From Schmidtea polychroa (lineage: Eukaryota): a DNA stretch of 64,000 nucleotides. Shown one piece after another: positions 2,600-53,182 of the stretch. Position 1 is the stretch's first letter. Each line of letters opens with the position of its first letter. The position numbers were made by a program, and so were the translations under genes. The stretch is taken from assembly GCA_044892525.1 (NCBI GenBank), contig CM097885.1:930001-994000 (forward strand), written 5' to 3'. The notes below the pieces were generated by a model. It had not been told where the DNA came from and made no database searches. It saw only the letters and a list, made by a program, of their open reading frames with translations.

Positions 2600-3640
2600 T
2601 TACCTTTTACCTTGACTGCATTGATGGAGGTGCTACTCGTCAAGAACCTACCTCATGCAGTTATCCATTTGTATGCCGAATGTCCTTTACCGTCGAACTT
2701 CCTGTGGCTTCGTCATAATCGTTCTTATTGGTCTAACAATGTACCGCACTACGTCGATCCCTCTTATAAGGTTTCTGAATTTCAACATTTTGATCTTATC
2801 ATAGCCCATTTTTGACTACTTTGGTGACAACATCAGAGTGCCTTCTTTTATTTTTTACCTTTTTAGGATCTGACCTTCACAGTGGATACATAAAGATTTT
2901 CAGCAAAAGCCTCAGCGATATGTAATTTCATTTATTTCCATTTTCAGCGTAGATTAGACTAGTAATGTCATGTAATTCTGAACACTTCTCATGCTTTCTT
3001 TCTTTATTTTCAATTTCTAGTTTAATATTTACATCCATCATTTTTATTTTTATTTTTATTTTTATTCTGATATTGCATTTATTATTTCTATGTAGATAGT
3101 TTAATACCTAAATCGGTATTCCTTACTAAATCGAAAGGTTTAAGCGGTCCTTATACATGCATCATACTGATCCCAGTTGGTGTATAAAATAAACTGCATT
3201 GATGAAGGTTCGAACCGTCATCGTTATCTCTCTTGCAGTCAGTCATTTGTGTGGACCTTTTCTTTGTCTTTTTTGCCAGATCCTCTATCTCAGTGGTAGA
3301 TAGGCCAATAATCCTTAGTATTGTGTATATTTATCCCAATACCCTAAGGTACCTATTACAAGGACATGTAACGTGTGTGGTCGTTTATGGAGGTGTCCGA
3401 TTTCCACTTGTTGTTCCACCGATTGTTCCACTTTACCAACTGTGCTTTAACAGCTTCGTACTCAGCCAGTGTGCTTATCCTTTCATCCCTGCACTCTTCA
3501 ATTTGTCAATTCGCCTATCACGCTTCGCAAGTAGAACTTCTGCTACTTGTTTGAATCCTTTCTGTGCATTCGGACCCCAACGGCAACTACTTACTCTTGC
3601 CGCTAGTATCTTTTTAAGTGTCCTAGTTAATACTGAGCAC
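2600..3640 (-). pseudogene. Degenerate, deleted R2-family fragments
   Basis: Blocks at ~2610-2740, 3155-3225, 3475-3540 and 3550-3637 resemble 6810-7010, 7096-7160 and 14320-14400 of the R2 copies. Confidence 0.7.
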
Positions 3641-3689
3641 GCTCTTCCTCTATTTTTGAAGGCTTTCTTAAATCGGCATCCAAGCTAGT

Positions 3690-4320
3690 TCGCTGGTCAT
3701 GTTTTCGGTTATTGGGAGTCATTTCCTAATATTTTTGATTTCAAGTTTTGGCTGGGTGCTTTGTTTTGCCTGTGTTTTAATAGAATGGGAATAGGTACCT
3801 TTTCTCGGAGAGATGCTTTTTCAGGAATGGTGATGTTGAAGTGATGGACTCCTTCTCCTGGTAGTATTCCTCACTATATCTGCGTATGTTTTTGATGTAG
3901 GTTCTTTTGCATTCATTTTGTTTTCGTCTAAGTACCAAATGATATAGATAAATATTGGAACTGGGGCATAATTTATTCATAATCCGAAGGCTTCAATGGT
4001 TATACGTCAGCTGCCTCCTGGCTTCTCTGATAAAATTCTCTTTTTCTCCTTGGAATTGCCGCCCATTTCTGCGCAGTGCTAGGAATCTTATATTGGAGTG
4101 ATTCTCCGAAGCACTGGTAAACGGCGGGAGTTATAATGTAACGATTGTTTTTGGAATCTTGCATGTAATATTTTTACGGAAAAGAGGTGCTAGGAAGTGA
4201 TTCTCCTAAGCGCTGGGAAACGGCGGGAGTAATCTGGTAATAATTTGAGTTTCTGAATAACATTAAAGAAATATTTTCACAGTAAAAAAGGGGACCTCCA
4301 TCAGGCATTATCTTTTTCAT
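3690..4320 (-). mobile_element. 5' region of a NeSL/R5-like retrotransposon with two 28S-like motifs
   Basis: 3987-4040 is homologous to 28455-28510. AAGC.CTGG.AAACGGCGGGAGT occurs at 4108-4131 and 4208-4232, and is shared with 13397/20149 at the 5' end of the long R5-like copies. Confidence 0.55.
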
Positions 4321-6809: not shown

Positions 6810-9521
6810 GCATTCTACTGATCCTAGTGGGTGTATACATTAAACTACCTCTCACTTTTACTGCATTGATGAAAGTTCGACCAGTCATCAATTTCCCTCG
6901 TGCAGTTAACAATTTGTGTGCACACTGCACTTCTTTGGCTTCACAAAGCCCTTTACCATCTAATTTACTATAAAGATTCATAGCAGTGGCTTCGTAGTAT
7001 TGTTTCTTGGTGGCTATTGGCGTCTCTTGTAGGAACAACGGTTTATTCCATTTTGCCAATTGTGACCTGACCGCTTCGTTCTCGGCCAATAAGCTTATCT
7101 TCTCATCCCTGCACTCTTCAATACGTCTAAGCCTATCACGCTTCGCAAATAGTACCTCTGTCAACAGGGCTGGCACACCCAGCCCCCATTTTTAATTTTA
7201 CTATTTATAAATGATGAACAAGTATCGGTTGGCAGGTGTAACCATTTGCGAACCGGGCCTCTAGTCATTTTATCCAATACCCCTAATTCGGTGGTATCGG
7301 TTTCCCCTAGCACAGCCTCATGTAAGATACCTGGTATCAAAAAGTCACTAATGCACCTCTAACTTTTGTTGCGGCTTAATAGGTGCCCTCGTAATATACT
7401 CAAGACGTTTAGTATAAAGATTGGATAGCTTTTTAGTAGTGCGACCAAGGGCTCCAAATTGGATCCCAAAATATTTATAGTAGTCGTCAGCTGACATGGC
7501 AGGGAACTCTTCCCCATCAGCACTTACGTTTTCGCTAGTAACCATCCATTTTTTCTGCTTACCGTCCCCTCGCGCTATAATGGAGGCACCTTAAAAGCAA
7601 TTCGGGATAACCCGCTAATTTCGCCGCTCTCATGATACTATCATGATTAACAGAATCGAAGGTCTTTTTCATATCGACAAAGGCAATTGCTACATTCCTA
7701 AATTTAGTTCGCGCATCAGAAAGGATGCAATCCAGCAAAGTGGTGTTTTCAAGGCACCCATCCACTGGCTAGCTTGAAGAGCGCAGCATGCGGTATAGTT
7801 CTCAAGGCCTTCGCGCTAATGCCGTCAGGACCACTAGCCGTTTTCAATTTCATCTTTTTCACAGCAGCTGCGATCTCCTCCAATGAGATGTGTGCAGCTA
7901 CTGACTTATCCTCAGTTGTCCTCTGGACAGGCCGGGTATCGGGTTCAGACTCTTTTTCGAAAACCTGTTTCCAATAGTCCCCTCTACCCGGCATTGGATC
8001 ATCCTCCAACAGCAGACTATCCAGCTTACCTTCAAGGATAGTGCTAGCGGCCGCACTTCGATCCTTCTGGAATAATCTCTGCAAATCCCCATAAATAGCT
8101 CTCTTCTTAGCTACCTTTATGTGCTTTTTAACCTTTGTACCATCCACGGGGACCTGGTACGTTTGGTTAAACTTGTTTTTCCTCTTTTTGAGTTTTACTT
8201 GAAACTGCTTAGTTACTGATAAGCAATATTCATCAAGCAAAACTCGTTGAGAATTTTCATCTTCAGTAAGGATGATCCTATCCAGTTGGTCCTCATGCCA
8301 AATGCTATGACCCTTGCTTCGAGGGAATTTCCTTAAAATAGTCATGATGTCTGGAGATGGACTCGTGGCTTGTATGTTCTCCATCGCCTCCTCCATGCCC
8401 ATCCCCTTCATCTTGTCTTCTAACTCTTTAAACACTGCTTTATATTTATTACTATCTAAGTGTTTGCGAATGGATTCCTTTGAACGTTTGAAGGCTGAAC
8501 ATCCAAGGTGAAGTATATCAAGAAGGTGAGATTGAGGTCTATAACGATTTTCAAGGTGAAGTTGAGCCATGAGGAGCTCTTCTTCATTACTCCAGTAATA
8601 AGCAGGTTTATTGGAAAGTTTCCTCAAGATGGCCTCTTCACGTAAGGTGCGATGGGATTTAGATATTTTACTTGAAACTGCTTAGTTACTGATAAGCAAT
8701 ATTCATCAAGCAAAACTCGTTGAGAATTTTCATCTTCAGTAAGGATGATCCTATCCAGTTGGTCCTCATGCCAAATGCTATGACCCTTGCTTCGAGGGAA
8801 TTTCCTTAAAATAGTCATGATGTCTGGAGATGGACTCGGGGCTTGTGGGTTCTCCATCGCCTGCTAACTCTTTAAACACTGCTTTATATCAGAACGTGTT
8901 CATTTCGGTTATCATGTCATCAGGAGTAATGATTTTTGGAGAGGCAGTGATGATCGGATTATCATTGTTGTCGAGGTCGGTATTGGAATTGAAGTTGATG
9001 AATTAGCATGGATATTTGATCTAGATGCTCAGTCGTAAGGGGTTCGGATAGGTCTTGATAGTTTGAGTTGATGGAGTTTATGAGTTCCGATATGGAAGTT
9101 GGATGGTCTTCATTAAGTTGATCATTTTCTTGGTTATTTTGGTGGATAAGTCTGGGTATTTGATTCAGATCTTCAGTAGCAAGGCGTTCGGAGAGGTCTG
9201 GATTTTGGTTAGTAGGATCATCAGGAGGCTTTTATAGCTAGTCTCTGAGTATTGGAGGTCAGCCATTTGCAGGGAGGGCATGATCTAAATAAATAAGTTT
9301 CGGGGCAGGAAGGCTCCCATGCAAAGTTTATAGCGAGAAATAAGTACTTATTATAATATATATTATAAGGAGTTAGTGAAGGTTGAGGTAAGTATATTAG
9401 TATTAATAGTTAATAGAGGTGTTGATTATAGTATCAATAGTATAATAATAATGATTATAGTATTAATAAAAACAACTAAAAAGACCACCAAATAGGCAGA
9501 ACCCCTACAAGGATTCCTACA

Positions 9522-12500
9522 TTAACCCATTCGGGTACGAAAGGATTTCCAGCATATTGGTGATCTGGAATTACGAAGGATGTTGTTACATAAGGCAAGG
9601 ATGAGCTCAAAGTTAGGAGATATCTTTCTCCAATCGCTTAGGGAGATTTTATCGGTACCAGGGGCAGTATTGTCGAGTTGGCAGAAGATACTTTTAATGT
9701 CATCAATGTCAAAGGGAATGATGGTTAATGATTCAGAGAGTGCTGGGTACTGATAGTTAAGGTTAAATGTGCAATCGGAGGTTTTGCTAGCAAAAAGTTT
9801 TAAAATATGATCCATATTTGGTGTATGTGTTTTCATTTGATTATTTAAGATTTTTGAAATTTCCTCTTTAGGAGCAAATTTATATTTTTGTCTCTTGGTA
9901 AATACCAGCTCTTTACTAACCTTATAATTTTTGTGAATAATGTCCGATGCTTTCTTTGTGATGTATTTATGAGGATTAATGCTTCCATTAATTCTCTCAA
10001 TCTCACTTAAGGCAGCATCGCATTCAATTAGATTGTTATTTAGATTAATAATTAGACAATTGATAAATGGTCGGAATTTCCGCACATCATCATTTGGCAA
10101 TTTGCAATAATTATAATTATTTATAGTAGTTTTAATATCATTAATCATATTAGTTACATTAGGGCAAGTTAATTTTTTACGTTTAATAAGGCATTCGATA
10201 AAGTGGCATATATAGAAAGCAGAGTCTGTAGGTACGAAGCAACGAGGGTATGCAGGATTTTGAAGTACAATTTGGACAGGGCTTACAATATTTTGGAGAT
10301 CAAGAATGGTTTCGAGGATATTCTGAGCTAATAAGAGGTGAGTAGAGAGGCTATCGTCAAGAAGCGGGTCAATGAGTACAGCAAGTTTACGATGTTTGTC
10401 AAGTAGAAAGAAGAACCAGTTGTCTTTACCATCAGACATGGGCATGATAATCTCATTCCAGTGAGCAAATTCAGAGAAAGGAAAGGTGGCAAAGAAGGTT
10501 ACATAGTTATGCTGAATAAGTGCATTTCCTATGAATGGGTCTACAAAAATAGAAGAGTTTTTCAAGGCATTTGAAAAGATATATGCCTTGATTGCATGTT
10601 GTGACCATCATGTCGACTCCTTCTCAACATTATTACCGAAGATAAGGGTATCAGGAAGGGGACGTTTGACAATTTCGCTTTCAGAGAAAATAGCCTCAAA
10701 TTCTTGCGACTCAAGAATTGGGCGCAAGTTGTTCACATTTTCAAGGGGGCTATCCTGTATCTGGGAGATCACAAGCGGAGTGGGGATATTGCCTGGATAC
10801 ACATAAGGTTCTGGGTGATATTCGAGGATATGTTGTCGAATAAGGTGATTGGAGATCCATGATCCACAGAAGCAGTATATTTCCTCGTCAGGGTAAAAGA
10901 TAAGTTTTTTATGTTTGACCTTTATGTGGTTAATAATGGTCATAAGGGGGGTGTCGATGTCAAAGATGGTTTTACATTTATTGCGATTTTTACTATAGTT
11001 GAAGCATATGAGGTTATTGGAGGGTGAAATCCGGATTTCAGCGCGGCTCATATATTCCAGGTCGCATTGGTCTATGTGTTGAAAGTGGGTGATGTGATTA
11101 TAAATTTGTTTGAAAGTTATTGGATTTGGCGCAAATTTATTCTCACCAGGAGTTCTACATTGAATGCAATCGATAAGAGTATTTTCGTCAATTTTTAATC
11201 TATGAAAGTCCCACGCGTGCTTAAAGATTTTTTTGCGATTATGGACAGAAACAGGACTGCAAAGTGTTGTCCTGCATTTGGACCTGCATTCGATTTTGCC
11301 CCTACCATTAAGTTTGAGAAGTATTTTGTTATCAAGTTCACTCTCATCTGCTGTTTTTGGGACGAAGGTATTGTGTGTGTGTTTGGCCAATGTTATGGGT
11401 GTGAGGTATTTAGGAGATGGGGCAGGGATATTATTTGCAATCACTTGTATTTTTTTATTAAATACTTCCATTTGTGATTGTATTCTTAATGCCTCTTGGA
11501 TTTCGTTGCATTCAGATTCAGAAGGAGTAGGTGCGGTGACTTAAGGTGTACTGCTAAGCTCAGTAGCGTTGGTAGTTTTAGATTGGATAAATTCAGGCGT
11601 ATTATGAAGACAGGCAGTTGTCATAGGGTTGTCAGTGTTGTTGTTGGAAGAGGAAGAGGCTGTGGGCTGGAGAGGTGGTTCTTGGTCGATAGAGGCTACA
11701 CTGCTGCTCGATAGATTCACATCATCTATGTCCGAGTTAAAAAGATCATTATTTGCCTGGGGATTTACAAGAGATTGAGATGGGTTTTGAGGAGTTTGAG
11801 AATTATACTCATCTATTGGAAGGGGGTCAATGGTGTCATCAAAGTCACAGCTGTAGTGTGAAGTGTCAAGAATGTATTCAGAGCAAGAGGAGGACGAGGG
11901 GTTAAGAGAGAGATCAGAGTCATTGTCAATAGTATCATTTAATGGAGAGCGTTTAACATGGGGAAGGGCAATGAGGGAATCATCAGTATTGTTCTCATAA
12001 TTATTAATTTTATTTTTATTTTTATAAATAGAGTAGAGGGTTGTGTATTTACCCTTACGTATGATTTTTTTAACAAAACAAGATTTTATTACTTTACTAT
12101 TGTTATCGTTAAAAATTGGAGGAAGGTTTTTAAGATCCTTGGGCTTATGGATGAAATCATTCCGGATAGGCTCAGAATAATGACGTTTCAAGGAAGTTCC
12201 AAGGTTTTTATTAGAAAGAGTTTGAGGTATAGTGTAAGTATTTCGATTGTCAGGTACATAATTAGCCATATTCACAGGAGAAAGAAAGGTATCAGTTGTT
12301 TGTGAGTTTGGAGTTTGATTATAAACTAAGTTGTTTAAGGTAGGTTCAGAACTAACGAGCTTTTCGCTGAAGGTGACAGTCTTTGAAGAGGCGAGTCGGC
12401 CGCAGGCCGGCGAGCTGCGTGTTTTCTTATGTTCCGAAGGAACACGAGAAAAATTTTTTTGAGAAAGAGTGTGGTTAAATAAGTGATATTTAAACAAAGA

Positions 12501-13456
12501 AAAGTCTTTATTTAAAATAGATAGTTTATTTAAATTAATAAATTTTGATATATTTTGTATTATAATATTAATTAACTCACTAGAAAATCCATTAAAAGGG
12601 ACTTCTGTGAAGTTTGTATTTTTATACTCCATAATTAATTTTTTAATGATATATTTAATTTTATTTTTAAAAAATTTCTCATATTTATAATTAATTTGAT
12701 TATCACAATAATTATTCAAATTCTTATTTATCACTATTTTTAAATTTATCATTACAAGTTAAATTATCATTATCATGAGAGTCATAAGTATAATTATTAG
12801 AAGGTCTAAAATTATTAATACTATAATCTCTATAATAATTTTGATTATGATTACCCTTTTTTAATAAGTGAATCTTTCGAGCTGGGCAAAAAGTTTTCCA
12901 AGAGGTGGCATATATATCGGGAGTTTCATTCACTTTAGCATTCTTCTCAGAATAGTATCTCTTAGGCATACGGTTCACTTCATTGTTACAGGTAAGAGAA
13001 CTTCCATTATTGATCGGCTCCTTGTGATTAATTGTATCCGTTATTTTAGTACGTGCTGTGGCAAATGTGCCATATTGCTTGAGGATCATCCTAGATGGGC
13101 AGTAAGATCTGATTTTCCTCGTTTCATATGTATCAGCAGGTGATTCGTCGGGTGGGTTCTCATCGGTTCTATATATATGTTTAGGATGCAATAAATTTAC
13201 TTTATCGATTGGTTTATCTCTGGAAGAAGAGCCTCTCCCATGTGGATCTGAGGGGCCGAAGGAGATACATGAGGTCGAATATCATCAGCTCTATTAAAAA
13301 GTTTAGATAGTAATAACAATAAGTTGTTCTTAATATTGTCTCCATTATTGGAGCTTCTTCCATCCAGGTAGGTATTATTATTCCTGGAATTCTGCTAAGC
13401 ACTGGTAAACGGCGGGATTCTCGAATATCTTGTCAAAAATTTTCATTGGTATCATA
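9522..13456 (-). mobile_element. NeSL/R5-like RLE retrotransposon (subfamily A), 3'-truncated in early RT, copy 1
   Basis: 11541-12752, 10608-11471 and 9522-10565 lie in one frame separated by single stops. Four C2H2-like fingers, an Ulp1/C48-like domain, then the RT start (TAPGTDKI..SDW...P..WKSFRT). An Ulp1-like domain before RT is typical of the NeSL clade. Confidence 0.8.
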
Positions 13457-15420
13457 TCGTTCTCGGCCAATAAGCAGGTGTAACCATTTGCGAACCGCGC
13501 CTCTAGTCATTTTATCCAATACCCCTAATTCGGTGGTATCGGTTTCCCCTAGCACAGCCTCATGTAAGATACCTGGTATCAAAAAGTCACTAAGCACCTC
13601 TAACTTTTGTTGCGGCTTAATAGGTGCCCTCGTAATATACTCAAGACGTTTAGTATAAAGATTGGATAGCTTTTTAGTAGTGCGACCAAGGGCTCCAAAT
13701 TGGATCCCAAAATACTTATAGTAGTCGTCAGCTGACATGGCAGGGAACTCTTCCCCATCAGCACTTACCTTTTCGCTAGTAACCATCCATTTTTTCTGCT
13801 TACCGTCCCCTCGCGCTATAATGGAGGCACTCTTACTTGGATTAACACTAAGGCCATTAGAAACCAATTCATTTAAAACCGTTGTTAACAGGTGTTCTAA
13901 CACCGCTTTGGTTTCACTAACTATTACTAAGTCGTCGGCATACGCCAAAATGGGATAGGTTATTCCCCTCACCTTATAGCCAATACCAGTTTCATATGCT
14001 TTCTGGATGGCGAGATCGATGACATTGTTGAACAGCGCGGGTGAAAGAGGGTCGCCCTGTTTCGCCCCCCTGTTAAACTTTGCCCCAATGCCATCGACCG
14101 TAGTTGTAGCATTGTTATAGCTCTCTTTAACATACCTTAAAAGCAATTCGGGATAACGCGCTAATTTCGCCGCTCTCATGATACTATCATGATTCACAGA
14201 ATCGAAGGCCTTTTTCGTATCGACAAAGGCAATTGCTACATTCCTAAATTTAGTTCGCGCATCAGAAAGGATGCAATCCAGCAAAGTGGTGTTTTCAAGG
14301 CACCCATCCACTGGCTTAAACCCCTTCTGTGCATTCGAACCCCAGCGACAACTACTTACTCTTGCCGCCAAGATCTTATTAAGTGTCCTAGTTAACACTG
14401 AGTTAACGGAAATAGGCCTATAGTCCCCTGGACTTTTGGGGTTTTCAACTTTTGGGATTAATGAGGTTCGTGCTGTCTTTAATACTGGGGGTAAATGTCC
14501 TAGAGCTAATATAAGATTAAACAACTTGAAGAGCGCAGCATGCGGTATAGTTCTCAAGGCCTTCGCGCTAATGCCGTCAGGACCACTAGCCGTTTTCAAT
14601 TTCATCTTTATCACAGCAGCTGCGATCTCCTCCAATGAGATGTGTGCAGCTACTGACTTATCCTCAGTTGTCCTCTGGACAGGCCGGGTATCGGGTTCAG
14701 ACTCTTTTTCGAAAACCTGTTTCCAATAGTCCCCTCTACCCGGCATTGGATCATCCTCCAACAGCAGACTATCCTGCTTACCTTCAAGGATAGTGCTAGC
14801 GGCCGCACTTCGATCCTTCTGGAATAATCTCTGCAAATCCCCATAAATAGCTCTCTTCCTAGCTACCTTTATGTGCTTTTTAACCTTTGTACCATCCACG
14901 GGGACCTGGTACGTTTGGTTAAACTTGTTTTTCCTCTTTTTGAGTTTTACTTGAAACTGCTTAGTTACTGATAAGCAATATTCATCAAGCAAAACTCGTT
15001 GAGAATTTTCATCTTCAGTAAGGATGATCCTATCCAGTTGGTCCTCATGCCAAATGCTATGACCCTTGCTTCGAGGGAATTTCCTTAAAATAGTCATGAT
15101 GTCTGGAGATGGACTCCGGGCTTGTGGGTTCTCCATCGCCTCCTCCATGCCCATCCCCTTCATCTTGTCTTCTAACTCTTTAAACACTGCTTTATATTTA
15201 TTACTATCTAAGTGTTTGCGAATGGATTCCTTTGAACGTTTGAAGGCTGAACATCCAAGGTGAAGTATATCAAGAAGGTGAGATTGAGGTCTATAACGAT
15301 TTTCAAGGTGAAGTTGAGCCATGAGGAGCTCTTCTTCATTACTCCAGTAATAAGCAGGTTTATTGGAAAGTTTCCTCAAGATGGCCTCATCACGTAAGGT
15401 GCGATGGGATTTAGATATTT
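13433..15420 (-). pseudogene. R2 ORF fragment (Myb + complete RT), truncated at both ends
   Basis: ASGPDGI, LIPK, DYRPISV, QKGF, DTKKAFDSV, GAKQGDPLSPALFN, AYADDL, YKYFG. Ends after RKWLHL through a deletion. Confidence 0.93.
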
Positions 15421-16273
15421 TACTTGAAACTGCTTAGTTACTGATAAGCAATATTCATCAAGCAAAACTCGTTGAGAATTTTCATCTTCAGTAAGGATGA
15501 TCCTATCCAGTTGGTCCTCATGCCAAATGCTATGACCCTTGCTTCGAGGGAATTTCCTTAAAATAGTCATGATGTCTGGAGATGGACTCGGGGCTTGTGG
15601 GTTCTCCATCGCCTGCTAACTCTTTAAACACTGCTTTATATCAGAACGTGTTCATTTCGGTTATCATGTCATCAGGAGTAATGATTTTTGGAGAGGCAGT
15701 GATGATCGGATTATCATTGTTGTCGAGGTCGGTATTGGAATTGAAGTTGATGAATTAGCATGGATATTTGATCTAGATGCTCAGTCGTAAGGGGTTCGGA
15801 TAGGTCTTGATAGTTTGAGTTGATGGAGTTTATGAGTTCCGATATGGAAGTTGGATGGTCTTCATTAAGTTGATCATTTTCTTGGTTATTTTGGTGGATA
15901 AGTCTGGGTATTTGATTCAGATCTTCAGTAGCAAGGCGTTCGGAGAGGTCTGGATTTTGGTTAGTAGGATCATCAGGAGGCTTTTATAGCTAGTCTCTGA
16001 GTATTGGAGGTCAGCCATTTGCAGGGAGGGCATGATCTAAATAAATAAGTTTCGGGGCAGGAAGGCTCCCATGCAAAGTTTATAGCGAGAAATAAGTACT
16101 TATTATAATATATATTATAAGGAGTTAGTGAAGGTTGAGGTAAGTATATTAGTATTAATAGTTAATAGAGGTGTTGATTATAGTATCAATAGTATAATAA
16201 TAATGATTATAGTATTAATAAAAACAACTAAAAAGACCACCAAATAGGCAGAACCCCTACAAGGATTCCTACA

Positions 16274-19200
16274 TTAACCCATTCGGGTACGAAAGGATTT
16301 CCAGCATATTGGTGATCTGGAATTACGAAGGATGTTGTTACATAAGGCAAGGATGAGCTCAAAGTTAGGAGATATCTTTCTCCAATCGCTTAGGGAGATT
16401 TTATCGGTACCAGGGGCAGTATTGTCGAGTTGGCAGAAGATACTTTTAATGTCATCAATGTCAAAGGGAATGATGGTTAATGATTCAGAGAGTGCTGGGT
16501 ACTGATAGTTAAGGTTAAATGTGCAATCGGAGGTTTTGCTAGCAAAAAGTTTTAAAATATGATCCATATTTGGTGTATGTGTTTTCATTTGATTATTTAA
16601 GATTTTTGAAATTTCCTCTTTAGGAGCAAATTTATATTTTTGTCTCTTGGTAAATACCAGCTCTTTACTAACCTTATAATTTTTGTGAATAATGTCCGAT
16701 GCTTTCTTTGTGATGTATTTATGAGGATTAATGCTTCCATTAATTCTCTCAATCTCACTTAAGGCAGCATCGCATTCAATTAGATTGTTATTTAGATTAA
16801 TAATTAGACAATTGATAAATGGTCGGAATTTCCGCACATCATCATTTGGCAATTTGCAATAATTATAATTATTTATAGTAGTTTTAATATCATTAATCAT
16901 ATTAGTTACATTAGGGCAAGTTAATTTTTTACGTTTAATAAGGCATTCGATAAAGTGGCATATATAGAAAGCAGAGTCTGTAGGTACGAAGCAACGAGGG
17001 TATGCAGGATTTTGAAGTACAATTTGGACAGGGCTTACAATATTTTGGAGATCAAGAATGGTTTCGAGGATATTCTGAGCTAATAAGAGGTGAGTAGAGA
17101 GGCTATCGTCAAGAAGCGGGTCAATGAGTACAGCAAGTTTACGATGTTTGTCAAGTAGAAAGAAGAACCAGTTGTCTTTACCATCAGACATGGGCATGAT
17201 AATCTCATTCCAGTGAGCAAATTCAGAGAAAGGAAAGGTGGCAAAGAAGGTTACATAGTTATGCTGAATAAGTGCATTTCCTATGAATGGGTCTACAAAA
17301 ATAGAAGAGTTTTTCAAGGCATTTGAAAAGATATATGCCTTGATTGCATGTTGTGACCATCATGTCGACTCCTTCTCAACATTATTACCGAAGATAAGGG
17401 TATCAGGAAGGGGACGTTTGACAATTTCGCTTTCAGAGAAAATAGCCTCAAATTCTTGCGACTCAAGAATTGGGCGCAAGTTGTTCACATTTTCAAGGGG
17501 GCTATCCTGTATCTGGGAGATCACAAGCGGAGTGGGGATATTGCCTGGATACACATAAGGTTCTGGGTGATATTCGAGGATATGTTGTCGAATAAGGTGA
17601 TTGGAGATCCATGATCCACAGAAGCAGTATATTTCCTCGTCAGGGTAAAAGATAAGTTTTTTATGTTTGACCTTTATGTGGTTAATAATGGTCATAAGGG
17701 GGGTGTCGATGTCAAAGATGGTTTTACATTTATTGCGATTTTTACTATAGTTGAAGCATATGAGGTTATTGGAGGGTGAAATCCGGATTTCAGCGCGGCT
17801 CATATATTCCAGGTCGCATTGGTCTATGTGTTGAAAGTGGGTGATGTGATTATAAATTTGTTTGAAAGTTATTGGATTTGGCGCAAATTTATTCTCACCA
17901 GGAGTTCTACATTGAATGCAATCGATAAGAGTATTTTCGTCAATTTTTAATCTATGAAAGTCCCACGCGTGCTTAAAGATTTTTTTGCGATTATGGACAG
18001 AAACAGGACTGCAAAGTGTTGTCCTGCATTTGGACCTGCATTCGATTTTGCCCCTACCATTAAGTTTGAGAAGTATTTTGTTATCAAGTTCACTCTCATC
18101 TGCTGTTTTTGGGACGAAGGTATTGTGTGTGTGTTTGGCCAATGTTATGGGTGTGAGGTATTTAGGAGATGGGGCAGGGATATTATTTGCAATCACTTGT
18201 ATTTTTTTATTAAATACTTCCATTTGTGATTGTATTCTTAATGCCTCTTGGATTTCGTTGCATTCAGATTCAGAAGGAGTAGGTGCGGTGACTTAAGGTG
18301 TACTGCTAAGCTCAGTAGCGTTGGTAGTTTTAGATTGGATAAATTCAGGCGTATTATGAAGACAGGCAGTTGTCATAGGGTTGTCAGTGTTGTTGTTGGA
18401 AGAGGAAGAGGCTGTGGGCTGGAGAGGTGGTTCTTGGTCGATAGAGGCTACACTGCTGCTCGATAGATTCACATCATCTATGTCCGAGTTAAAAAGATCA
18501 TTATTTGCCTGGGGATTTACAAGAGATTGAGATGGGTTTTGAGGAGTTTGAGAATTATACTCATCTATTGGAAGGGGGTCAATGGTGTCATCAAAGTCAC
18601 AGCTGTAGTGTGAAGTGTCAAGAATGTATTCAGAGCAAGAGGAGGACGAGGGGTTAGGAGAGAGATCAGAGTCATTGTCAATAGTATCATTTAATGGAGA
18701 GCGTTTAACATGGGGAAGGGCAATGAGGGAATCATCAGTATTGTTCTCATAATTATTAATTTTATTTTTATTTTTATAAATAGAGTAGAGGGTTGTGTAT
18801 TTACCCTTACGTATGATTTTTTTAACAAAACAAGATTTTATTACTTTACTATTGTTATCGTTAAAAATTGGAGGAAGGTTTTTAAGATCCTTGGGCTTAT
18901 GGATGAAATCATTCCGGATAGGCTCAGAATAATGACGTTTCAAGGAAGTTCCAAGGTTTTTATTAGAAAGAGTTTGAGGTATAGTGTAAGTATTTCGATT
19001 GTCAGGTACATAATTAGCCATATTCACAGGAGAAAGAAAGGTATCAGTTGTTTGTGAGTTTGGAGTTTGATTATAAACTAAGTTGTTTAAGGTAGGTTCA
19101 GAACTAACGAGCTTTTCGCTGAAGGTGACAGTCTTTGAAGAGGCGAGTCGGCCGCAGGCCGGCGAGCTGCGTGTTTTCTTATGTTCCGAAGGAACACGAG

Positions 19201-20208
19201 AAAAATTTTTTTGAGAAAGAGTGTGGTTAAATAAGTGATATTTAAACAAAGAAAAGTCTTTATTTAAAATAGATAGTTTATTTAAATTAATAAATTTTGA
19301 TATATTTTGTATTATAATATTAATTAACTCACTAGAAAATCCATTAAAAGGGACTTCTGTGAAGTTTGTATTTTTATACTCCATAATTAATTTTTTAATG
19401 ATATATTTAATTTTATTTTTAAAAAATTTCTCATATTTATAATTAATTTGATTATCACAATAATTATTCAAATTCTTATTTATCACTATTTTTAAATTTA
19501 TCATTACAAGTTAAATTATCATTATCATGAGAGTCATAAGTATAATTATTAGAAGGTCTAAAATTATTAATACTATAATCTCTATAATAATTTTGATTAT
19601 GATTACCCTTTTTTAATAAGTGAATCTTTCGAGCTGGGCAAAAAGTTTTCCAAGAGGTGGCATATATATCGGGAGTTTCATTCACTTTAGCATTCTTCTC
19701 AGAATAGTATCTCTTAGGCATACGGTTCACTTCATTGTTACAGGTAAGAGAACTTCCATTATTGATCGGCTCCTTGTGATTAATTGTATCCGTTATTTTA
19801 GTACGTGCTGTGGCAAATGTGCCATATTGCTTGAGGATCATCCTAGATGGGCAGTAAGATCTGATTTTCCTCGTTTCATATGTATCAGCAGGTGATTCGT
19901 CGGGTGGGTTCTCATCGGTTCTATATATATGTTTAGGATGCAATAAATTTACTTTATCGATTGGTTTATCTCTGGAAGAAGAGCCTCTCCCATGTGGATC
20001 TGAGGGGCCGAAGGAGATACATGAGGTCGAATATCATCAGCTCTATTAAAAAGTTTAGATAGTAATAACAATAAGTTGTTCTTAATATTGTCTCCATTAT
20101 TGGAGCTTCTTCCATCCAGGTAGGTATTATTATTCCTGGAATTCTGCTAAGCACTGGTAAACGGCGGGATTCTCGAATATCTTGTCAAAAATTTTCATTG
20201 GTATCATA
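16274..20208 (-). mobile_element. NeSL/R5-like retrotransposon (subfamily A), copy 2
   Basis: Duplicate of 9522-13456 at +6752. Confidence 0.8.
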
Positions 20209-22290
20209 TCGTTCTCGGCCAATAAGCAGGTGTAACCATTTGCGAACCGCGCCTCTAGTCATTTTATCCAATACCCCTAATTCGGTGGTATCGGTTTCCC
20301 CTAGCACAGCCTCATGTAAGATACCTGGTATCAAAAAGTCACTAAGCACCTCTAACTTTTGTTGCGGCTTAATAGGTGCCCTCGTAATATACTCAAGACG
20401 TTTAGTATAAAGATTGGATAGCTTTTTAGTAGTGCGACCAAGGGCTCCAAATTGGATCCCAAAATACTTATAGTAGTCGTCAGCTGACATGGCAGGGAAC
20501 TCTTCCCCATCAGCACTTACCTTTTCGCTAGTAACCATCCATTTTTTCTGCTTACCGTCCCCTCGCGCTATAATGGAGGCACTCTTACTTGGATTAACAC
20601 TAAGGCCATTAGAAACCAATTCATTTAAAACCGTTGTTAACAGGTGTTCTAACACCGCTTTGGTTTCACTAACTATTACTAAGTCGTCGGCATACGCCAA
20701 AATGGGATAGGTTATTCCCCCCACCTTATAGCCAATACCAGTTTCATATGCTTTCTGGATGGCGAGATCGATGACATTGTTGAACAGCGCGGGTGAAAGA
20801 GGGTCGCCCTGTTTCGCCCCCCTGTTAAACTTTGCCCCAATGCCATCGACCGTAGTTGTAGCATTGTTATAGCTCTCTTTAACATACCTTAAAAGCAATT
20901 CGGGATAACCCGCTAATTTCGCCGCTCTCATGATACTATCATGATTCACAGAATCGAAGGCCTTTTTCGTATCGACAAAGGCAATTGCTACATTCCTAAA
21001 TTTAGTTCGCGCATCAGAAAGGATGCAATCCAGCAAAGTGGTGTTTTCAAGGCACCCATCCACTGGCTTAAACCCCTTCTGTGCATTCGAACCCCAGCGA
21101 CAACTACTTACTCTTGCCGCCAAGATCTTATTAAGTGTCCTAGTTAACACTGAGTTAACGGAAATAGGCCTATAGTCCCCTGGACTTTTGGGGTTTTCAA
21201 CTTTTGGGATTAATGAGGTTCGTGCTGTCTTTAATACTGGGGGTAAATGTCCTAGAGCTAATATAAGATTAAACAACTTGAAGAGCGCAGCATGCGGTAT
21301 AGTTCTCAAGGCCTTCGCGCTAATGCCGTCAGGACCACTAGCCGTTTTCAATTTCATCTTTATCACAGCAGCTGCGATCTCCTCCAATGAGATGTGTGCA
21401 GCTACTGACTTATCCTCAGTTGTCCTCTGGACAGGCCGGGTATCGGGTTCAGACTCTTTTTCGAAAACCTGTTTCCAATAGTCCCCTCTACCCGGCATTG
21501 GATCATCCTCCAACAGCAGACTATCCTGCTTACCTTCAAGGATAGTGCTAGCGGCCGCACTTCGATCCTTCTGGAATAATCTCTGCAAATCCCCATAAAT
21601 AGCTCTCTTCCTAGCTACCTTTATGTGCTTTTTAACCTTTGTACCATCCACGGGGACCTGGTACGTTTGGTTAAACTTGTTTTTCCTCTTTTTGAGTTTT
21701 ACTTGAAACTGCTTAGTTACTGATAAGCAATATTCATCAAGCAAAACTCGTTGAGAATTTTCATCTTCAGTAAGGATGATCCTATCCAGTTGGTCCTCAT
21801 GCCAAATGCTATGACCCTTGCTTCGAGGGAATTTCCTTAAAATAGTCATGATGTCTGGAGATGGACTCCGGGCTTGTGGGTTCTCCATCGCCTCCTCCAT
21901 GCCCATCCCCTTCATCTTGTCTTCTAACTCTTTAAACACTGCTTTATATTTATTACTATCTAAGTGTTTGCGAATGGATTCCTTTGAACGTTTGAAGGCT
22001 GAACATCCAAGGTGAAGTATATCAAGAAGGTGAGATTGAGGTCTATAACGATTTTCAAGGTGAAGTTGAGCCATGAGGAGCTCTTCTTCATTACTCCAGT
22101 AATAAGCAGGTTTATTGGAAAGTTTCCTCAAGATGGCCTCATCACGTAAGGTGCGATGGGATTTAGATATATGGACTCCACGTCCCCTCAGCGTTAGGAA
22201 AGGCAAAAATCAATACTCACAGACAAACGACTGTTCCACATCCCTCTCCAGTTTTGTAGCGTTGTTATTTTTATTTGTACTCATTTTCAT
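20185..22290 (-). pseudogene. R2 ORF, N-terminus to RT (single C2H2 finger + Myb + RT), 3'-truncated
   Basis: In-frame ATG at 22290 (MKMSTNKNN...SFVCEY*FLPFLTLRGRGVHISKSH). The TGA at 22210-22212 is TGC (Cys) in the 42.9-kb copy, restoring CxxC-x12-H-x4-H. Full RT motifs follow. Confidence 0.93.
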
Positions 22291-24139: not shown

Positions 24140-25585
24140 TTTGAATCTTTTAATACAAAGCAGTTCATTTTTAGTCCTGGTATTTTTATGGACAATGTCT
24201 GCTAGTTTTTTAATTTTCTTTTTTTTCCATTTCATTAAGGGCTGTTTCACGGTCCATATTGTCGTTATTTAAATTAGTTATTAAACCTTTAATAAGTGGG
24301 AGGTATTTTTTAATATTATCGTCAGGTATTTTGTAGGTAAAATAGTTTTCCTCAACAGTTCTGATATTTTTTTGCATAATAGTAATTTTAGGAATGATTA
24401 GTTTAGTATTCTTTATCAGGCATTGGATGAGGTGGCACACAAAAAAGGCAACTGGGATATTCATATTTTGTGAGTGTAATTGCGAGTGGTGAAACGATTT
24501 TTTGCAGATCAAGAATGGTATTCAGTATGCTATTAGCGAAAGATAAGTGTATGGAGTGGCTATCGTCAAGTAAAGGATCTATTATAACAGCTAATTGTCT
24601 CTGCTTATCAAGATAAAAGAAAAACCAGTTGTCTTTGCCATTTGACATTGGCATAATAATTTCGTTCCACTCTGCGAAGTCTTTGAAGGGGAAGGAGGAG
24701 AAGAAGGTTTTGTAATTATGCATGATTAGATCAACATAAGGGTCAACAAAGATGGTAGATTTTTTCATGGCGAAAGAGTAAACGAATGCCTTTATTGTGT
24801 CCTGGGACCATCAAGCTGATTCCTTATCCACGTTATTTGTGAAAAAGCAATCATTTGGTATTTCTCTACTATAGTTAAAATCAAAACCATTTAGACATTC
24901 TTCATCTGATGAAGTTTGTTTCCCTTCCTTTGTGTTTCAAGGTTATCTGCAATCACCTCCTGGGTGTTTAATACATTATTCATAATATTATAGTCATAAT
25001 AATATTGTTAGTATTTGGTGGTATTGGGTGGCGTTGAGCTATATGATTGATAATGCCATCTACTGGGACCCAGCTCCTACATGCACAGTATATATCGGCA
25101 TTTTTATCAATAATTCCATTTCTATGTTTTTTTGACATGTGCTCCCATACATATGCCAATGGAGTGTCCCAATTCCACGTCGTAAAGCATTTTTTGTAGT
25201 TCTTATTGTGGCTATTACATGTGAGGTGATTATTTTTGTCGATTTTAATAAATATCATTTTGAGGGTATCTTTATCATTTTGTATTTCATGCACATATTG
25301 TTCGACATGTCTGTAAATGTTTTTGTGCGTAACCGGATATATTACATAGCGTTCGTTGGCCTTTGCATTGGCCGCAGTCAATGATGGAGTGTTCTGTGAT
25401 AATGATGTTGTGCGTACTGATCCAATTTTTCCCTATTGTAAATGGAAATCGCTCCAAAAAAAGGTGTGCGTAAGTGGTGTCTGCATCTACATTTCGCTCT
25501 GGAGTTGAAGTAGTAGAGGTTAGGATCTTGCCTGTATTGACTGCATTGCCAATACCAATGGGTTCAAATCCCATTTCGGTCAATT
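24140..25585 (-). pseudogene. NeSL/R5-like fragment (subfamily B), second copy
   Basis: ORFs 25287-25583, 24980-25381, 24403-24768 and 24210-24512. Zinc fingers + Ulp1-like domain. Near-identical to 4640-5786. Confidence 0.75.
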
Positions 25586-26332
25586 TTTTTTCAAATTTTT
25601 TTTCAACAAAATATTGATCAGCATACTCGATTTAGTACTTTTACAAATTTTTAAGGTGATTGGTCAACGGCAACTCTTGGAAATTTAAGATCAAAAACGT
25701 TTTAACTTAAGCTACCAATGTACATTAGATAATTTAATTAAATTTACATTACACATTTAACAAATTTGCTAATAACTTTTACAATATTAATTGTTACAAA
25801 GTAATTTATATATCAATAAATAGATAATTAAATTTACAATATAAATTATATCAAATTTGTTAATTAGTGTCAGATTTGAAAATTTACTATGTTGGTTTGA
25901 AATATTTTACCACCAAGTTAACATTTTGACCAACAAATTTTTAGATTTTTAATATTATTTAAATATTGAAGTACCACAAAATAGAGAAAAAAATTTAGAA
26001 TTAGAATCATCTTTGAAAATAAAAATACTATCAAAACTTAATTTTTTATTGGAAATTTTCGAAATCACGTTGCCGAAATTTTACCACCGCGGCGAAGTTT
26101 TCATTAATAACTTTTTAAATAATAATTATTATAAAAATATTTTAGCACCGCTGGAAAGATAATAAAATTTAGATTATAAATCATATCGGAACTTTAAAAT
26201 ACTAGCAAAATTAAAATTATTCTTGGCAAATATTGCAATCCCAATACCATGTGTTGTGTAACTAATTAATTAATTACAAAATTAAACTTTTCAAATTTAA
26301 AATTTTGCCAAAAAGTCATAGTAACTCTAACG

Positions 26333-26510
<178 letters not shown>

Positions 26511-26817
26511 TACGATCACTTCAGATTTTTTTGAAAAATTTTTTTCATTAGCATTTGTACACTAGCCAAAATACTTAGTCGAATTTCTTGGACTATTTCA
26601 GATGGTCGTCTCAATTTTTTAAATAAATAAGCCTATTTACAACAGCAATATACTGTAGTAAATAGGCTTAAAATTTATCTGTGTGATGAACTGGTAAACG
26701 GCGGTCTTTTTTACTCCCGCTGTTGACCATTTGACTACTAAGCAGTTACTGTTAACCAGTTATTATTCAGTTATATAGAAATTTATCAATAGCACTGCTA
26801 CCCAGGAATACAAATAT

Positions 26818-27127
26818 AAGTTACCACAGGGGTAACTGGCTTGTGGTAGTTAAAAAACAGCCAATAGCCAGTTAACTGAATGCAAAAATGCATTGAAAAC
26901 ACTATTACCACTAGGTTAATTGGATTATGGTAGTTAAAAAACATCCAATAGCCAGTTAACCGAATGCATTGAAAACACTATTACCACGGGGTTAATTGGC
27001 TTATGGTGGTTAATAAACATCCAATAGCCAGTTAACCGAATGCATTGAAAACACTATTACCACGGGGTTAATTGGCTTATGGTGGTTAAAAAACATCCAA
27101 TAGCCAGTTAACCGAATGCCTTGAAAA
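26818..27127. repeat. Four ~76-bp tandem hairpin repeats downstream of 28S
   Basis: TTACCAC starts at 26821, 26905, 26981 and 27057. Each unit has GG(T/G)TAA(C/T)TGG(C/A) ... GCCAGTTAAC inverted arms. Confidence 0.93.
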
Positions 27128-27292
27128 TTTTCTTAGCATAAAAGCCCACATAATATAGTTAATAAACTATAATATGCAGGCAATTAGTTAATCTAAATTT
27201 CAATCTAGAAATTTAAAGTTAATTTTAAAAACGACATTAATGAATCATAAAGACTCAATACATATCTACACAATGAATGATTCCTAAAGAAT

Positions 27293-27706
27293 CAAATCAT
27301 CGCGTCAGATGGGGATGAAGTTCAAAATCTCGCAGTTTACACCACTCGAATTCTTACGCTTCCCCGACCGTAAAGTAAGTCGTCTACAAACGATTTAATG
27401 CCAACACGTAAATCATTAAAAATGATTCAAACATCCAAACTATTTTCATAGAATGGTTAGAGTTTAAATATATGGCTAAGCCACATCCACTAACTTGCGT
27501 TAATGAATAATAAAATTGCCTCATTACGAGGATGGCACAAAATATCATGATTTTTAGGCGAGATTCAGACTTAGAGGCGTTCAGTCTTAATCTCTCGGAT
27601 GGTAGCTTCGTGCCACTGACCTTTCGATCAAGCACATTTACCAGTGATCCGAATCTGCGGTTCCTCTCGTACTGAGCAGAATTACTATTATCATGACAAA
27701 TTATAT

Positions 27707-27743
<37 letters not shown>

Positions 27744-27802
27744 TCCAGCTCACGTTCCCTATTAGTGGGTGAACAATCCAACGCTTTGCGAATTCTACTT
27801 CG

Positions 27803-27840
<38 letters not shown>

Positions 27841-27886
27841 GACGTCGCTTTGAACGCTTGGCCGCCACAAGCCAGTTATCCTTGTG
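27293..27886 (-). rRNA. 28S rRNA: 28S (LSU) rRNA gene, 3'-terminal ~590 nt (5'-truncated, probably non-functional)
   Basis: Minus strand reads GGATAACTGGCTTGTGGCGGCCAAGCG...GATCCTTCGATGTCGGCTCTTCC...GACCGTCGTGAGACAGGTTAGTTTTACCCTAC, the sarcin-ricin loop AGTACGAGAGGAAC (~27660-27673), GACTGAACGCCTCTAAGTC, and ends near GATTTG. Confidence 0.97.
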
Positions 27887-48898: not shown

Positions 48899-50624
48899 AT
48901 CATTTAACCAATTAAGGGGCTTATTAGTTAGAAATATATATATTATAAAGTAACAATTATTTTTGTGTTTAAGGTATTCCTTGGTAATATTTTTTTTAGA
49001 GTTGATGGTTTTTGTGAATTTTTATCATTTTCATGAATTTCATGTGGATAGAATGAATATTTAAAAATTTTAAGTTAGTTCTAAGATAAATTTAATTAAT
49101 TTCTTGATAATTGGATGCATTTTTATTGATTGGTTTTTTAATTTTAAATAAAAATTATTTTTATTGACAGTTAGGTTAATAATCACGTGATAGGATATGA
49201 CTTTGTAATAATATTTTTTTTCATATATTTTCTAAGAATTTCATGTAGATTTATTTAAAAATTTAAAGTTTTAATGACGATTTTATTTGAATTTCTTGAT
49301 AATTTGTTAAATTTTAAATAAAAATTAATTTTTTTTAATGACTGTTAGGTTAATAATTAAGTAATTGGTTTAATTTTAGATGACTTTGTAATGCATTTGA
49401 CTAAATAATTTTTTTCAATAATTTTCTAAGAATATTAACACATTGATGAACTTTTTTAAAAAAAACATAAGCTAAGAAACCAGTTAACCTTATAAAGAAC
49501 TTTAAATTTACTTGATAATTTACAGAAATAATATACAAAATTTAATTTACAGAAATAATTTACAAAATAATAATACAGAAATTTATGATTAAGTTTGATT
49601 TTATGAACAATCAATATATATCATCTCTAGTTAGGTATTTGATAGGTGTAATATTTGTAGAAAATAATAAGTTTATTATGTCTTTGTTACATAACTCGAC
49701 TTTAGCGTCAAAATGTGTTTTTAAAATAAATTTTAATTTTAAAATACCGCAATGTAATATATTAATTTTTTCTAACCTTCCTTGATTTTGATTGGTTAGA
49801 ATTTGTTACTATAAACAATAATAATCTATAAACAATAATAATCTATAAACAATAATCAATCATTAGTCAAATTTAACAAATAATTAACCTTTAAAAATGA
49901 ATTCTTTAATAGAAAACGTTATGAATGTTCGAGAAAAAATTAAGGAATTTGGTAAATTTTAATTTATTTAATAATTAATTTATTAATTAATTTAGATAAT
50001 ATTAATGAAGACAATTTAAAATCTTTATTTTTTCTTAAATTTTACATTTACATTATATTCTAAAAAGAGAGTTAATTATAACAATAATATTTCAATTTGT
50101 ATAAAATTTTAATTAGTAATTATTCAATTTGAATAAAATATTTATTAGAAATTATTTAATTTATTATAAAATAAAACGCTGTGTTAATTTTAAATAAACT
50201 GGATATTAATTTTTTGGAAAAAATAAATAAATAAAATAGTCTAAAAGGTTAAATTATGGTCTAAAATTTAAAATTTAAAAATTGAAAATTGAAAATTGAA
50301 AATTAAAAACTAAACTAATCAAACTAAATCAAACGCTATAACCTTAATTCAAGAATTCACTAAAGTAGATCAGAAGATATTAATTATCAAAATGTAACAA
50401 AGACTCTGAAATTCATCAATTTCATCTAATGACCTGGTGATATTCAATACCATTCTCAAGAATGCTAAAGTCGGGAATTCTTTGAATTTAACAATTTCAT
50501 CTAACTATCCGGCGATATTCGATCCGATTCTATAAAGTATTTATCTTTGTAGTTGAATAAAAGTTTATTGTTGATTATAGTTTATCATTAATTATTTTTT
50601 TGTTAGGGGTGTTAAAGAAAATAC

Positions 50625-51000
50625 TTGACTGATTCATTTTTCTCAGATAAAATTTGTTCTGTAATCGGGAAATTCAAGGATGAGAATAAAGGAAATCAAT
50701 ATAAAGAATGGGTGTTTCTTCGTCCCAAGTGCTCCTCACTCCAAGGCGATAAAACACTCTAAAAGCCAAAGGAATAAGACTTACAAATTCTAATATCACC
50801 CATGAAGCTTATAAAAAAAGTGTATACTGATGGTGGAACAGTGAGCATCCCATTAAAAAAGAATAGGAAGTGTCAATCATCAGTTGTATACTTTCATGAC
50901 AGAAAAACGAGCTCTCCAATGTTTGGACGATAAAAGGTATTGGTACAATTGTAATGAAAGCTATGCCTACGGTCACTATAAGATTCGTCACATGCATATT
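50625..51000 (+). pseudogene. pPolB subfamily-2 C-terminal fragment in the macrosatellite (also ~55017-55392, ~59642-60017)
   Basis: GKFKDENKG...FLRPKC...LDDKRYW...YAYGHYKI, same as 31493-31860. Confidence 0.88.
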
Positions 51001-51594
51001 GCAACTTCTATGTCTAGAAATGAATGCAAATCGAAACAAGCACTTTAACAATTAAATTTATGTGAATAATAAAATATATATTGTGAATTATTTGACTTCG
51101 TTAATTAAAATATGTTTTATCATTTAATAATTCATTTGTCCAATTAATTTAGATAATTAGTTTTAAGTAAGAATTATTATTTATCATGAAAAACTTTGCT
51201 TTGTTTTGAAAAATTAATGCCCATTTTATTTTAAATTAACACAGCTTTATTTTATGATTATTACTAATTAAAATTTTATTCAAATTGAAATATTATTGTT
51301 ACAATTTACACTCTTGTTAGAATATATTAAATGTAAATGTAAAATAATAACAATAAAAAAAAAATAATAATAATAATAAATAAATAAAAATTAAATTAAA
51401 AAAAAAATTAATTAAATAACGTAAGTAATTAAAATAAAATATTAATAAATAATTAATTAATTAAATGTAATAAATTGAAAATTAACTAAAGTAATTAATT
51501 AAAACAAAAAACATAATAAAATAATTAATTAATAAATTTAAAAAAAAAATTAAATAGTAGTAATTAAATAAATTTAAAAAAAAAATAAATAGAA

Positions 51595-51672
51595 ATGATT
51601 CTATTGACCTATATTTGACCTGGACATTGGGATGACCTTGAAAGTGTCCTGGAGTCCTCACTATATACTACT
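51595..51672 (+). mobile_element. Probable Polinton right terminus ...ACTACT-3' (also ending 56064, 60689; truncated copy ~32500-32567)
   Basis: TGACC-rich subterminal motif, then CACTATATACTACT ~0.7 kb after the pPolB end. AGTAGT/ACTACT ends are characteristic of Polintons. An inverted copy of the inner TIR lies at ~50025-50215. Confidence 0.65.
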
Positions 51673-53182
51673 AATTATAATCATAATTTTCTTTAATTTA
51701 ACCCTTTATTTACTTAATTTAGCCCTTGTTTACCGAATATAGAAGTTTAAAATATAGACCATTGATTACATTAATTTAAAAATGTATCCCTTAATTTACA
51801 TAATTTCCATCTAAAATTATTTCAAAAAAATTTTTTTTCTAAAATTGTCATTGAAAAATATTTCATAAAAGTTTTCATTTAAAATTTTCATTGAAAAATA
51901 TTTCATAAAAATTTTTTTTAAAAATTATCTTAAAAATTATTCCATAAAAATTTTCATTAAAAAATTTCAATTCTCAAACACCTTCTATTATTTTGTTAAT
52001 AAATTTAAAATCTTACTTTAATTTGCTTATTACATTACTTATTTAAAAATTATTACTTTAATTTACTTATTTAAAATATTTGACCATTGATTACTTAATT
52101 TAAAAATTTGGACCTTAATTAACTTTAATTTAATTTTTAGAACCTTAATTTACTTTAATTTTAAATTTTGACCCTTAATTAACTTTAATTCAAAATTTGG
52201 ACATTAATTGAAAATTTTAGACCATACTTTTCCATAAAATTGTCATTGAAAAAATTTTTATTTCTCAGGCGCCGTTTAGTAGGTGGTTAGGAGCCCGCTT
52301 CAAATGCAAGCCGTTTTTTTGCTGCAACATTTGATTGCGCAATTGTTGGAACTTGTTTTTTTTTCTATTGAAAATACTAGAAAAAAAAAATAATCGTAGC
52401 TTACTGTACAACAAAAAAAAATGAGTTGCAACAATTGCGTAATCAAAATTTGCAGCAAAAAAAAAGTTGCCGCAGACCCCCTCCCCCCCCTAAAATTTTC
52501 AATTAAGGTCTAAAATTTTCAATTAAGTAATTAAAGTCTAAATTTCTCAATTACAGTAAATTATGGTTCTAAAAAATTAAATTACAGTAAATTATGGTCC
52601 AAATTTTCAAAAACAGTAAATTATGGTATATATTTTAAAACTTAAGTAAATTAAGGTCTAAAATTTAAAAGTAAAGTAAATTTCAATTAAGTAAAGTAAG
52701 GTCTAAAATTTTCAATTAAAGTAAATTAAGGTACAAATTTTGAATTAAAGTTAATTAAGGGTCAAAATTTAAAATTAAAGTAAATTAAGGTTCTAAAAAA
52801 TTAAATTAAAGTTAATTAAGGTCCAAATTTTTAAATTAAGTAATCAATGGTCAAATATTTTAAATAAGTAAATTAAAGTAATAATTTTTAAATAAGTAAT
52901 GTAATAAGCAATTTAAAGTAAGATTTTAAATTTATTAACAAAATAATAGAAGGTGTTTGAGAATTGAAATTTTTTAATGAAAATTTTTATGAAATATTTT
53001 TCAATGACAATTTTAGAAAAAAAAATTTTTTGAAATAATTTTAGATGGAAATTATTTAAATTAAGGGATACATTTTTAAATTAAAGTAATCAATGATCTA
53101 TATTTTAAACTTCTATATTCGGTAAACAAGGACTAAATTAAGTAAATAAAGGGTTAAATTAAAGAAAATTATGATTATAATT
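51673..53182. repeat. Long inverted repeat (~500-bp arms) with GC-richer palindromic core; also 56065-57807 and 60690-62199
   Basis: AATTATAATCATAATTTTCTTTAATTTAACCC... (51673) versus ...GGGTTAAATTAAAGAAAATTATGATTATAATT (53182). Inner IR at ~52314-52353 / ~52424-52463. Confidence 0.9.

Follow-up and report, generated by a model that had tools for sequence, protein, structure and literature searches.

Copies of 28S retrotransposon target flanks in an rDNA spacer array of the planarian Schmidtea polychroa

The retrotransposons LIN9_SM, LIN24_SM and LIN26_SM are NeSL/R5-related elements of Schmidtea mediterranea (PMC4640811). S6 Fig of that paper gives LIN24_SM and LIN26_SM the site numbered 2463 here, and LIN9_SM the site numbered 3093, all 28S positions being those of a full 28S copy of the genome under study. 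R2 RNA carries up to 36 nt of upstream 28S sequence, which is copied into new DNA at 5′ junctions and then decays (PMC3774820). 28S-like sequence has also been described in R2 3′ UTRs (PMC5035012). The RUM/RASIN target anatomy was defined for Bombyx R2 (PMC10499050), and R2 breaks can drive rDNA expansion in Drosophila (PMC10266012). Among dugesiids, type II rDNA is reported to combine high copy number with low expression (PMC10991399).

The locus described here lies in a window of 64,000 nucleotides, a term used for the whole stretch of DNA that was analysed. It contains an array of hairpin units behind a 28S sequence. The array is confirmed, is fixed in one of two rDNA types and derives from flanks of retrotransposon targets, and it can demonstrably serve as a landing site. 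Like known rDNA spacer subrepeats and terminator boxes, the array is tandem, variable in repeat number, homogenised and placed directly behind the 28S gene; those repeats are not known to be derived from 28S retrotransposon targets. Whereas the 28S copies borne by R2 stay in or beside the element, the planarian spacer copies stand alone and inverted, trace to three element groups and have become fixed in the rDNA unit. The elements concerned resemble LIN9_SM, LIN24_SM and LIN26_SM in using the same 28S points, in antisense orientation, in the poly-T 3′ end at the LIN24/26 site and in worn internal flank copies at LIN9 5′ ends (PMC4640811). The sections of that paper on elements and targets make no mention of spacer copies, of landings in them or of an antisense-28S start codon. 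In the open full-text literature searched, no description of target copies in an rDNA spacer and no study of LIN9-type element targeting was found. The origin of an rDNA spacer repeat, rarely known, becomes visible, and natural variants of three retrotransposon targets are provided, one of them proven in use.

Structure and fold of the array

The sequence-only reading had described four units of about 76 bp roughly 170 bp beyond the 28S gene. Both statements are borne out: the start-to-start spacing is 84, 76 and 76 (TRF period 76), and the array ends 167 nt beyond the 28S 3′ end at 27294. Unit 1 matches 28S positions 3093-3121 of its own genome in 28 of 29 bases, in inverted orientation (blastn E 7e-8). 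The remaining units are indeed more diverged, with 22, 21 and 17 of 28 bases matched without gaps in the reference spacer against 27 of 28 in unit 1; the 17/28 unit carries a 1-nt deletion. The 28S "gene" of the window proved to be a 594-nt 3′ piece, cut at the copied site itself and lying among clustered retrotransposon pieces. More of 28S is copied than first described, with two further segments represented beyond unit 1 (Table 1). In the window, the R2-flank copy lacks 30 nt at its apex, where intact units hold the nick-site motif.

Table 1. Features of the rDNA piece in the window
Feature	Positions	Strand	Remark
Unit 1, long arm: matches 28S 3093-3121 (5′ flank at the LIN9-type insertion point) in 28/29 bases; used for a landing in another copy	26818..26846	+	site as in S6 Fig, PMC4640811
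Unit 1, short arm: folds back onto the long arm and matches its 28S segment in 13/17 bases	26861..26877	.	
Units 2-4 of the 76-bp array: the LIN9-type site again, with greater divergence; rDNA repeats of the census have 3 to 5 units	26887..27127	.	
Worn two-way copy of the LIN24/LIN26 site 5′ flank (28S 2473-2498); weak match, without stable hairpin	26755..26797	.	p 0.007-0.04 against shuffles; z about 0
Inverted copy pair of the R2 site upstream flank (28S 2515-2552)	26691..26729	.	p 0.003
Long A+T-rich hairpin without rRNA match; closes the region before the 105-bp spacer repeats	26628..26670	.	z -7 to -8
29-nt motif directly before the array, common to the 3′ spacer of the second rDNA type	27118..27146	-	p 0.002
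28S 3′ piece (positions 3100-3693) starting at the LIN9-type site; stray, outside arrays	27294..27886	-	
Remaining intergenic-spacer fragment with a shortened 105-bp repeat, an ATT run and a single tRNA-like repeat that is truncated by the boundary	25540..26627	-	

The hairpins claimed for the array hold in part. Every unit folds, with z from -2.0 to -4.1 over both strands, but the stem measures only about 9-12 bp and is followed by short helices split by internal loops. The compensatory changes sought in the stems are absent (none in 18 pairs among the four units). The arms show no sign of conservation in the contig of run X7, with 2 of 144 arm bases changed, compared with 3 of the 180 others (34 rows of differences fall outside this count). 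Gaps in the cover of this region in runs X15 and X13 carry no weight. As judged from G-U pairs, the array units fold slightly better on the + strand, and the R2 and A+T hairpins on the - strand.

Hairpins of this kind could serve as a small-RNA source, in which read-through or antisense transcripts guide the silencing of one 28S type or of the leader common to all LIN9 families; this is considered very improbable. The hairpins are stable, the long arm could pair with 28S rRNA at -50.9 kcal/mol, and on the opposite strand the single mismatch becomes, by inspection, a G-U pair with the LIN9 leader. In two runs that cover 28S very deeply, some parts of the array have low contig depth. Against this stand the short and broken stems (about 12 bp plus short helices), the lack of compensatory pairs and the lack of any Rfam match at the gathering score. 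With 22 weak matches only, an rRNA-modification guide or a known RNA family was rejected.

The position of the array, 170-630 nt behind the 28S gene, would also fit a different role, as terminator and fork-barrier repeats lie there in other eukaryotes. The palindromes may be bound by a host protein that terminates Pol I transcription or arrests replication forks, the 28S pieces being kept for the bound motif; this explanation is regarded as unlikely. It is consistent with a tandem motif of 3-5 units 167 nt behind the 28S gene, and with a 9-letter degenerate arm motif, chosen post hoc, of which the collapsed region holds 5 occurrences where 0.06 would be expected (2000 shuffles gave at most 2). 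Units 2-4 are also fully paired at the stem base, where unit 1 is mismatched, although they match 28S more poorly. A binding site for a terminator protein leaves the 28/29 match, starting at a cut site, unexplained.

Copied target flanks and their origin

The sequence-only reading had interpreted the stems as copies of the 28S peptidyl-transferase site. This interpretation is not supported: the limit of the copy is set by a retrotransposon cut site, and the spacer contains copies of two further element sites. In 1.18 Mb of array-bearing (type X) rDNA, recurrent breaks of 18S-28S occur only at 28S 2463 (6 left ends), 2550/2552 (7 right ends) and 3093/3094 (17 left ends), the remaining 28S breaks being single events or one duplicated junction. 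The break at 2550/2552 is the R2 site, and five of its seven right ends have in common a linked deletion end at 2405. The start of unit 1, where the copied 29 bases begin, is the LIN9-type cut point. The flanks of the LIN24/26 and R2 sites are copied within about 130 bases of the array.

These matches exceed chance. Four further rRNA matches lie in the next 230 bases of spacer, compared with 0.25 expected (maximum 2 in 100 shuffles), and the five best of 374 rRNA windows compared with the spacer all lie beside the three insertion sites. Gapped alignment to the spacer detects the 5′ flanks of the LIN9 site (p 0.003), of the R2 site in both orientations (p 0.003) and of the LIN24 site (p 0.007-0.04), and finds no match for the 3′ flanks of the LIN9 and R2 sites (p above 0.3). 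The 3′ flank of the LIN24 site does match (p 0.003), through the same bases as one R2 arm, and is therefore an exception to a rule of 5′ flanks only.

The R2 copy spans -36 to +1 without an indel and retains, in exact spacing, all 8 positions critical for Bombyx R2 cleavage (chance 0.11). The Bombyx target and the spacer copy are thus alike at the critical positions, but no R2 insertion junction is present at the copy, and a genome-wide search for R2 3′ junctions there found none. Considered as a fossil of a 28S/R2 junction, the copy scores 38 against 36 for uninserted 28S, and the fold-back arm accounts for the same bases. As a separate observation, 28S position 2548, which is position -4 of the R2 site, departs from the usual base in both rDNA types. 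A single fragment in the genome has the usual form of the site, and the spacer copy carries the usual base. R2 insertion in 28S persists despite the changed position.

It is considered somewhat probable, at slightly better than even likelihood, that elements left the array and its two neighbours behind as scars, that these spread through concerted evolution, and that unit 1 acts as a weak spare landing site. Under such a scenario, 40-55 nt of flanking 28S would be attached to the 5′ end of the elements. The leader, or a cut DNA end, would have been written into the spacer beside an old shared motif, the captured piece would have folded back, and the element body would then have been lost. The LIN9 piece may have been multiplied by unequal exchange, and concerted evolution would have spread the copies, a selected function being unnecessary. 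Nine internal copies of 28S flank, of 42-69 nt, are found inside elements. The single substitution of unit 1 also occurs in one LIN9-related internal copy, where it is silent in the ORF1 frame. Together with the second rDNA type's own copy of a flank, these features suggest capture as the likeliest origin. The lack of an element body next to the three copies counts against scars. Drift would also have to explain three separate captures in about 450 bp, each of them fixed in hundreds of units, which is much to ask of it, and the retention of all 8 Bombyx-critical positions with their spacing is likewise counted against the scars.

The same retention fits a selected trap. The host may keep spare LIN9, LIN24/26 and R2 targets, cut short, in dispensable spacer in order to bind, nick or absorb the insertion machinery, so that landed elements spare the 28S gene and lose a start codon borrowed from antisense 28S; spacer nicks might in addition promote harmless unequal exchange. 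This possibility is rated as rather doubtful, but if selection does keep the copies, the target locus itself would encode a host defence. In its favour, the spacer of the high-copy type has copies of all three recurrent sites.

Elements at the 28S site and landings in the spacer

The inserts at 3093/3094 lie antisense to the rDNA, with the insertion point and orientation of LIN9_SM (S6 Fig, PMC4640811). They encode an Ulp1 protease (PF02902) and a reverse transcriptase (PF00078), both above the cut-off, and a CCHC plus PD-D-K (restriction-like endonuclease) pattern can be recognised by eye in a 1089-aa frame. Among the protein matches that bear on a grouping with Repbase LIN9_SM, there is no named reference. 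ORF1 and ORF2 are separated by one in-frame stop. In five different 5′ ends, ORF1 is in frame with an ATG on antisense 28S, 43 nt before the cut. The frame from this ATG stays open for 65 to more than 500 codons in 9 of 13 distinct junction strings (again five different 5′ ends; loci L056:1799-5065 and site-B junctions in C218, C338, C97, C202, C21, C2 and C19), and the other four strings, truncated or rearranged, reach a stop within 22 codons. LIN9_SM as drawn in S6 Fig of PMC4640811 fits the frame by eye. To judge from these reading frames, the antisense-28S ATG probably serves as the start codon of LIN9-type elements. The apparent start codon makes the expression of antisense-oriented rDNA elements testable.

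The idea that the array offers decoy sites holds literally and fails as to amount. At L230 (C3:795740-797576), a 1.84-kb LIN9-type element is inserted exactly at unit 1, in the orientation predicted by the inversion. Its 5′ junction is the same as in 28S, it is 99.7% identical to 28S-borne copies, and the 28S LIN9 site of its own unit is intact. The spacer copy is therefore a secondary target of a site-specific element, used at the equivalent point, in the predicted orientation and with normal junctions, and a unit 1 that is never invaded is ruled out. Twenty-eight bases can suffice as a LIN9-type target. The L230 copy spans only these 28 nt and has an in-frame stop ahead, and the ATG at 43 nt falls outside it, so the landed element loses its apparent start codon and is predicted to be a dead end. 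Two looser landings are a 370-nt 3′ piece of another family in place of an arm (L233) and a LIN9-related 5′ end at a diverged unit (L236). All three come from 19 stretches picked from match lists on large contigs. A genome-wide pattern search at unit 1, blind to two element families, gave 2 matches, both indels, and five odd matches at units 2-5 comprise two point variants, two chance matches and one break at the point equivalent to the cut.

In regular arrays, none of 89 unit-1 copies is interrupted by an element, compared with 20 of 88 28S sites. The 28S inserts include 13 distinct ones among the 16 with both ends, and since none of 13 distinct insertions lies at the copy, its share of landings is below 21%. 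As a sink, the array is weak. The landings and the apparent loss of the start codon fit a trap, but so small a share is difficult to reconcile with it, as spacer insertions should be better tolerated than those in 28S. Lesions overlap the R2 nick motif in five lineages (the window, C21, L221, L227 and L233), which would also fit a trap; the motif lies, however, at the hairpin apex, and palindrome fragility accounts for the lesions equally well. A further point in favour of a trap is that 28S is less often interrupted in units with five repeats (5/56) than in those with four (8/21) or three (6/6, after removal of 3 partial duplicates from 9), a trend confounded by haplotype blocks. In the second, array-free rDNA type, 2 of 23 sites are interrupted, in stretches picked for long spacing, so this type is not more invaded. 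This result, the counts of 0/89 and 20/88, the drift of units 2-5 from 28S and the lack of any compensatory pair argue against a selected role, and in this respect favour scars.

Several other rearrangements were observed. At L235 (G000 C1:1107501-1114000), a 115-nt R2 piece lies at a break inside unit 1 and is followed by an array duplication. An amplified repeat of 11-20 kb joins LIN9 pieces to a 28S 3′ fragment (G000 C19, C23, C37, C82, C88, C1:29.6-29.9 Mb and 271.4-271.6 Mb). It makes up most of those listed among the 181 interrupted-site matches, and some of its copies retain one older array unit cut by a LIN9-like piece. A truncated LIN24-like insert of 115 nt with a poly-T tail recurs at site 2463 (C218, C428), and a 0.9-kb insert with a poly-A tail occupies the R2 site of the second type (C363).

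Two rDNA types

The expectation that the array occurs in most rDNA units of one type is confirmed, and it extends to nearly all of them. The assembly contains 698 exact copies of a 23-letter part of unit 1, and the array is part of the standard rDNA unit of 13-14 kb. A census covered 1.18 Mb of type X rDNA from 19 contigs and scored 89 units: 86 have 3, 4 or 5 repeats, one array carries indels, one is cut by the end of the fetched sequence and one is lost. The 698 copies and the census rule out a one-off fold-back at this locus. The one unit in 89 that has lost the whole region counts against a terminator.

The second rDNA type has 143 copies, compared with 698 of the first, to which its 28S and 18S are 89.7% and 91.5% alike. 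The array is absent from all eight stretches of this type examined. Its spacer holds a 66-nt 28S copy of its own, which starts exactly at the LIN24/26 site (the equivalent of 2463). Two motifs are common to the spacers of both types (16/19 and 25/29 bases, p 0.002), which otherwise barely align. The long conservation of the R2-flank motif that this implies counts against scars and would suit either a trap or a terminator. A Myb consensus was rejected as the shared motif, as it is not kept in the second type. This type, of higher G+C, lies at G000 C3:144.54-144.62 Mb (L108-L112), and its 143-bp spacer repeats contain a 16-nt antisense match across the LIN24/26 site.

Type alleles were compared at three diagnostic places. 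The second type accounts for 99.7-99.9% in one run guessed to be RNA, where foreign rRNA may add to the counts, and for 25% in two runs with DNA-like depth; run X13, from another organism, has first-type alleles. The array-bearing type thus looks rarely transcribed (below 1% in one run that is RNA only by guess). It may correspond to the dugesiid type II rDNA of PMC10991399, one of two types about 10% apart, with high copy number and low RNA. The two types and the shared element sites point to a dugesiid planarian. The near absence of the array-bearing type from the RNA-like run lowers the weight of read-through hairpins, and the copied segment, being identical in both types, could not tell them apart for silencing. 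A terminator, in turn, has to contend with an apparently expressed type that has no array.

The remainder of the window offers some minor observations. The stray rDNA piece ends inside a 243-bp spacer repeat, at a retrotransposon reading frame. Repeats of this class give weak tRNA matches (30-36 bits) directed against rDNA transcription (window 25540-25651; L022, L023, L035, L038); ARAGORN detects no tRNA in the spacer repeats. Positions 7773-22170 are occupied by a 6.75-kb unit in tandem, which contains NeSL-like frames and the frame of an R2-like reverse transcriptase; its R2 part is nearly the same as the R2 inserted in 28S. Positions 48959-64000 form an A+T-rich tandem array with a period of 4.4-4.6 kb.
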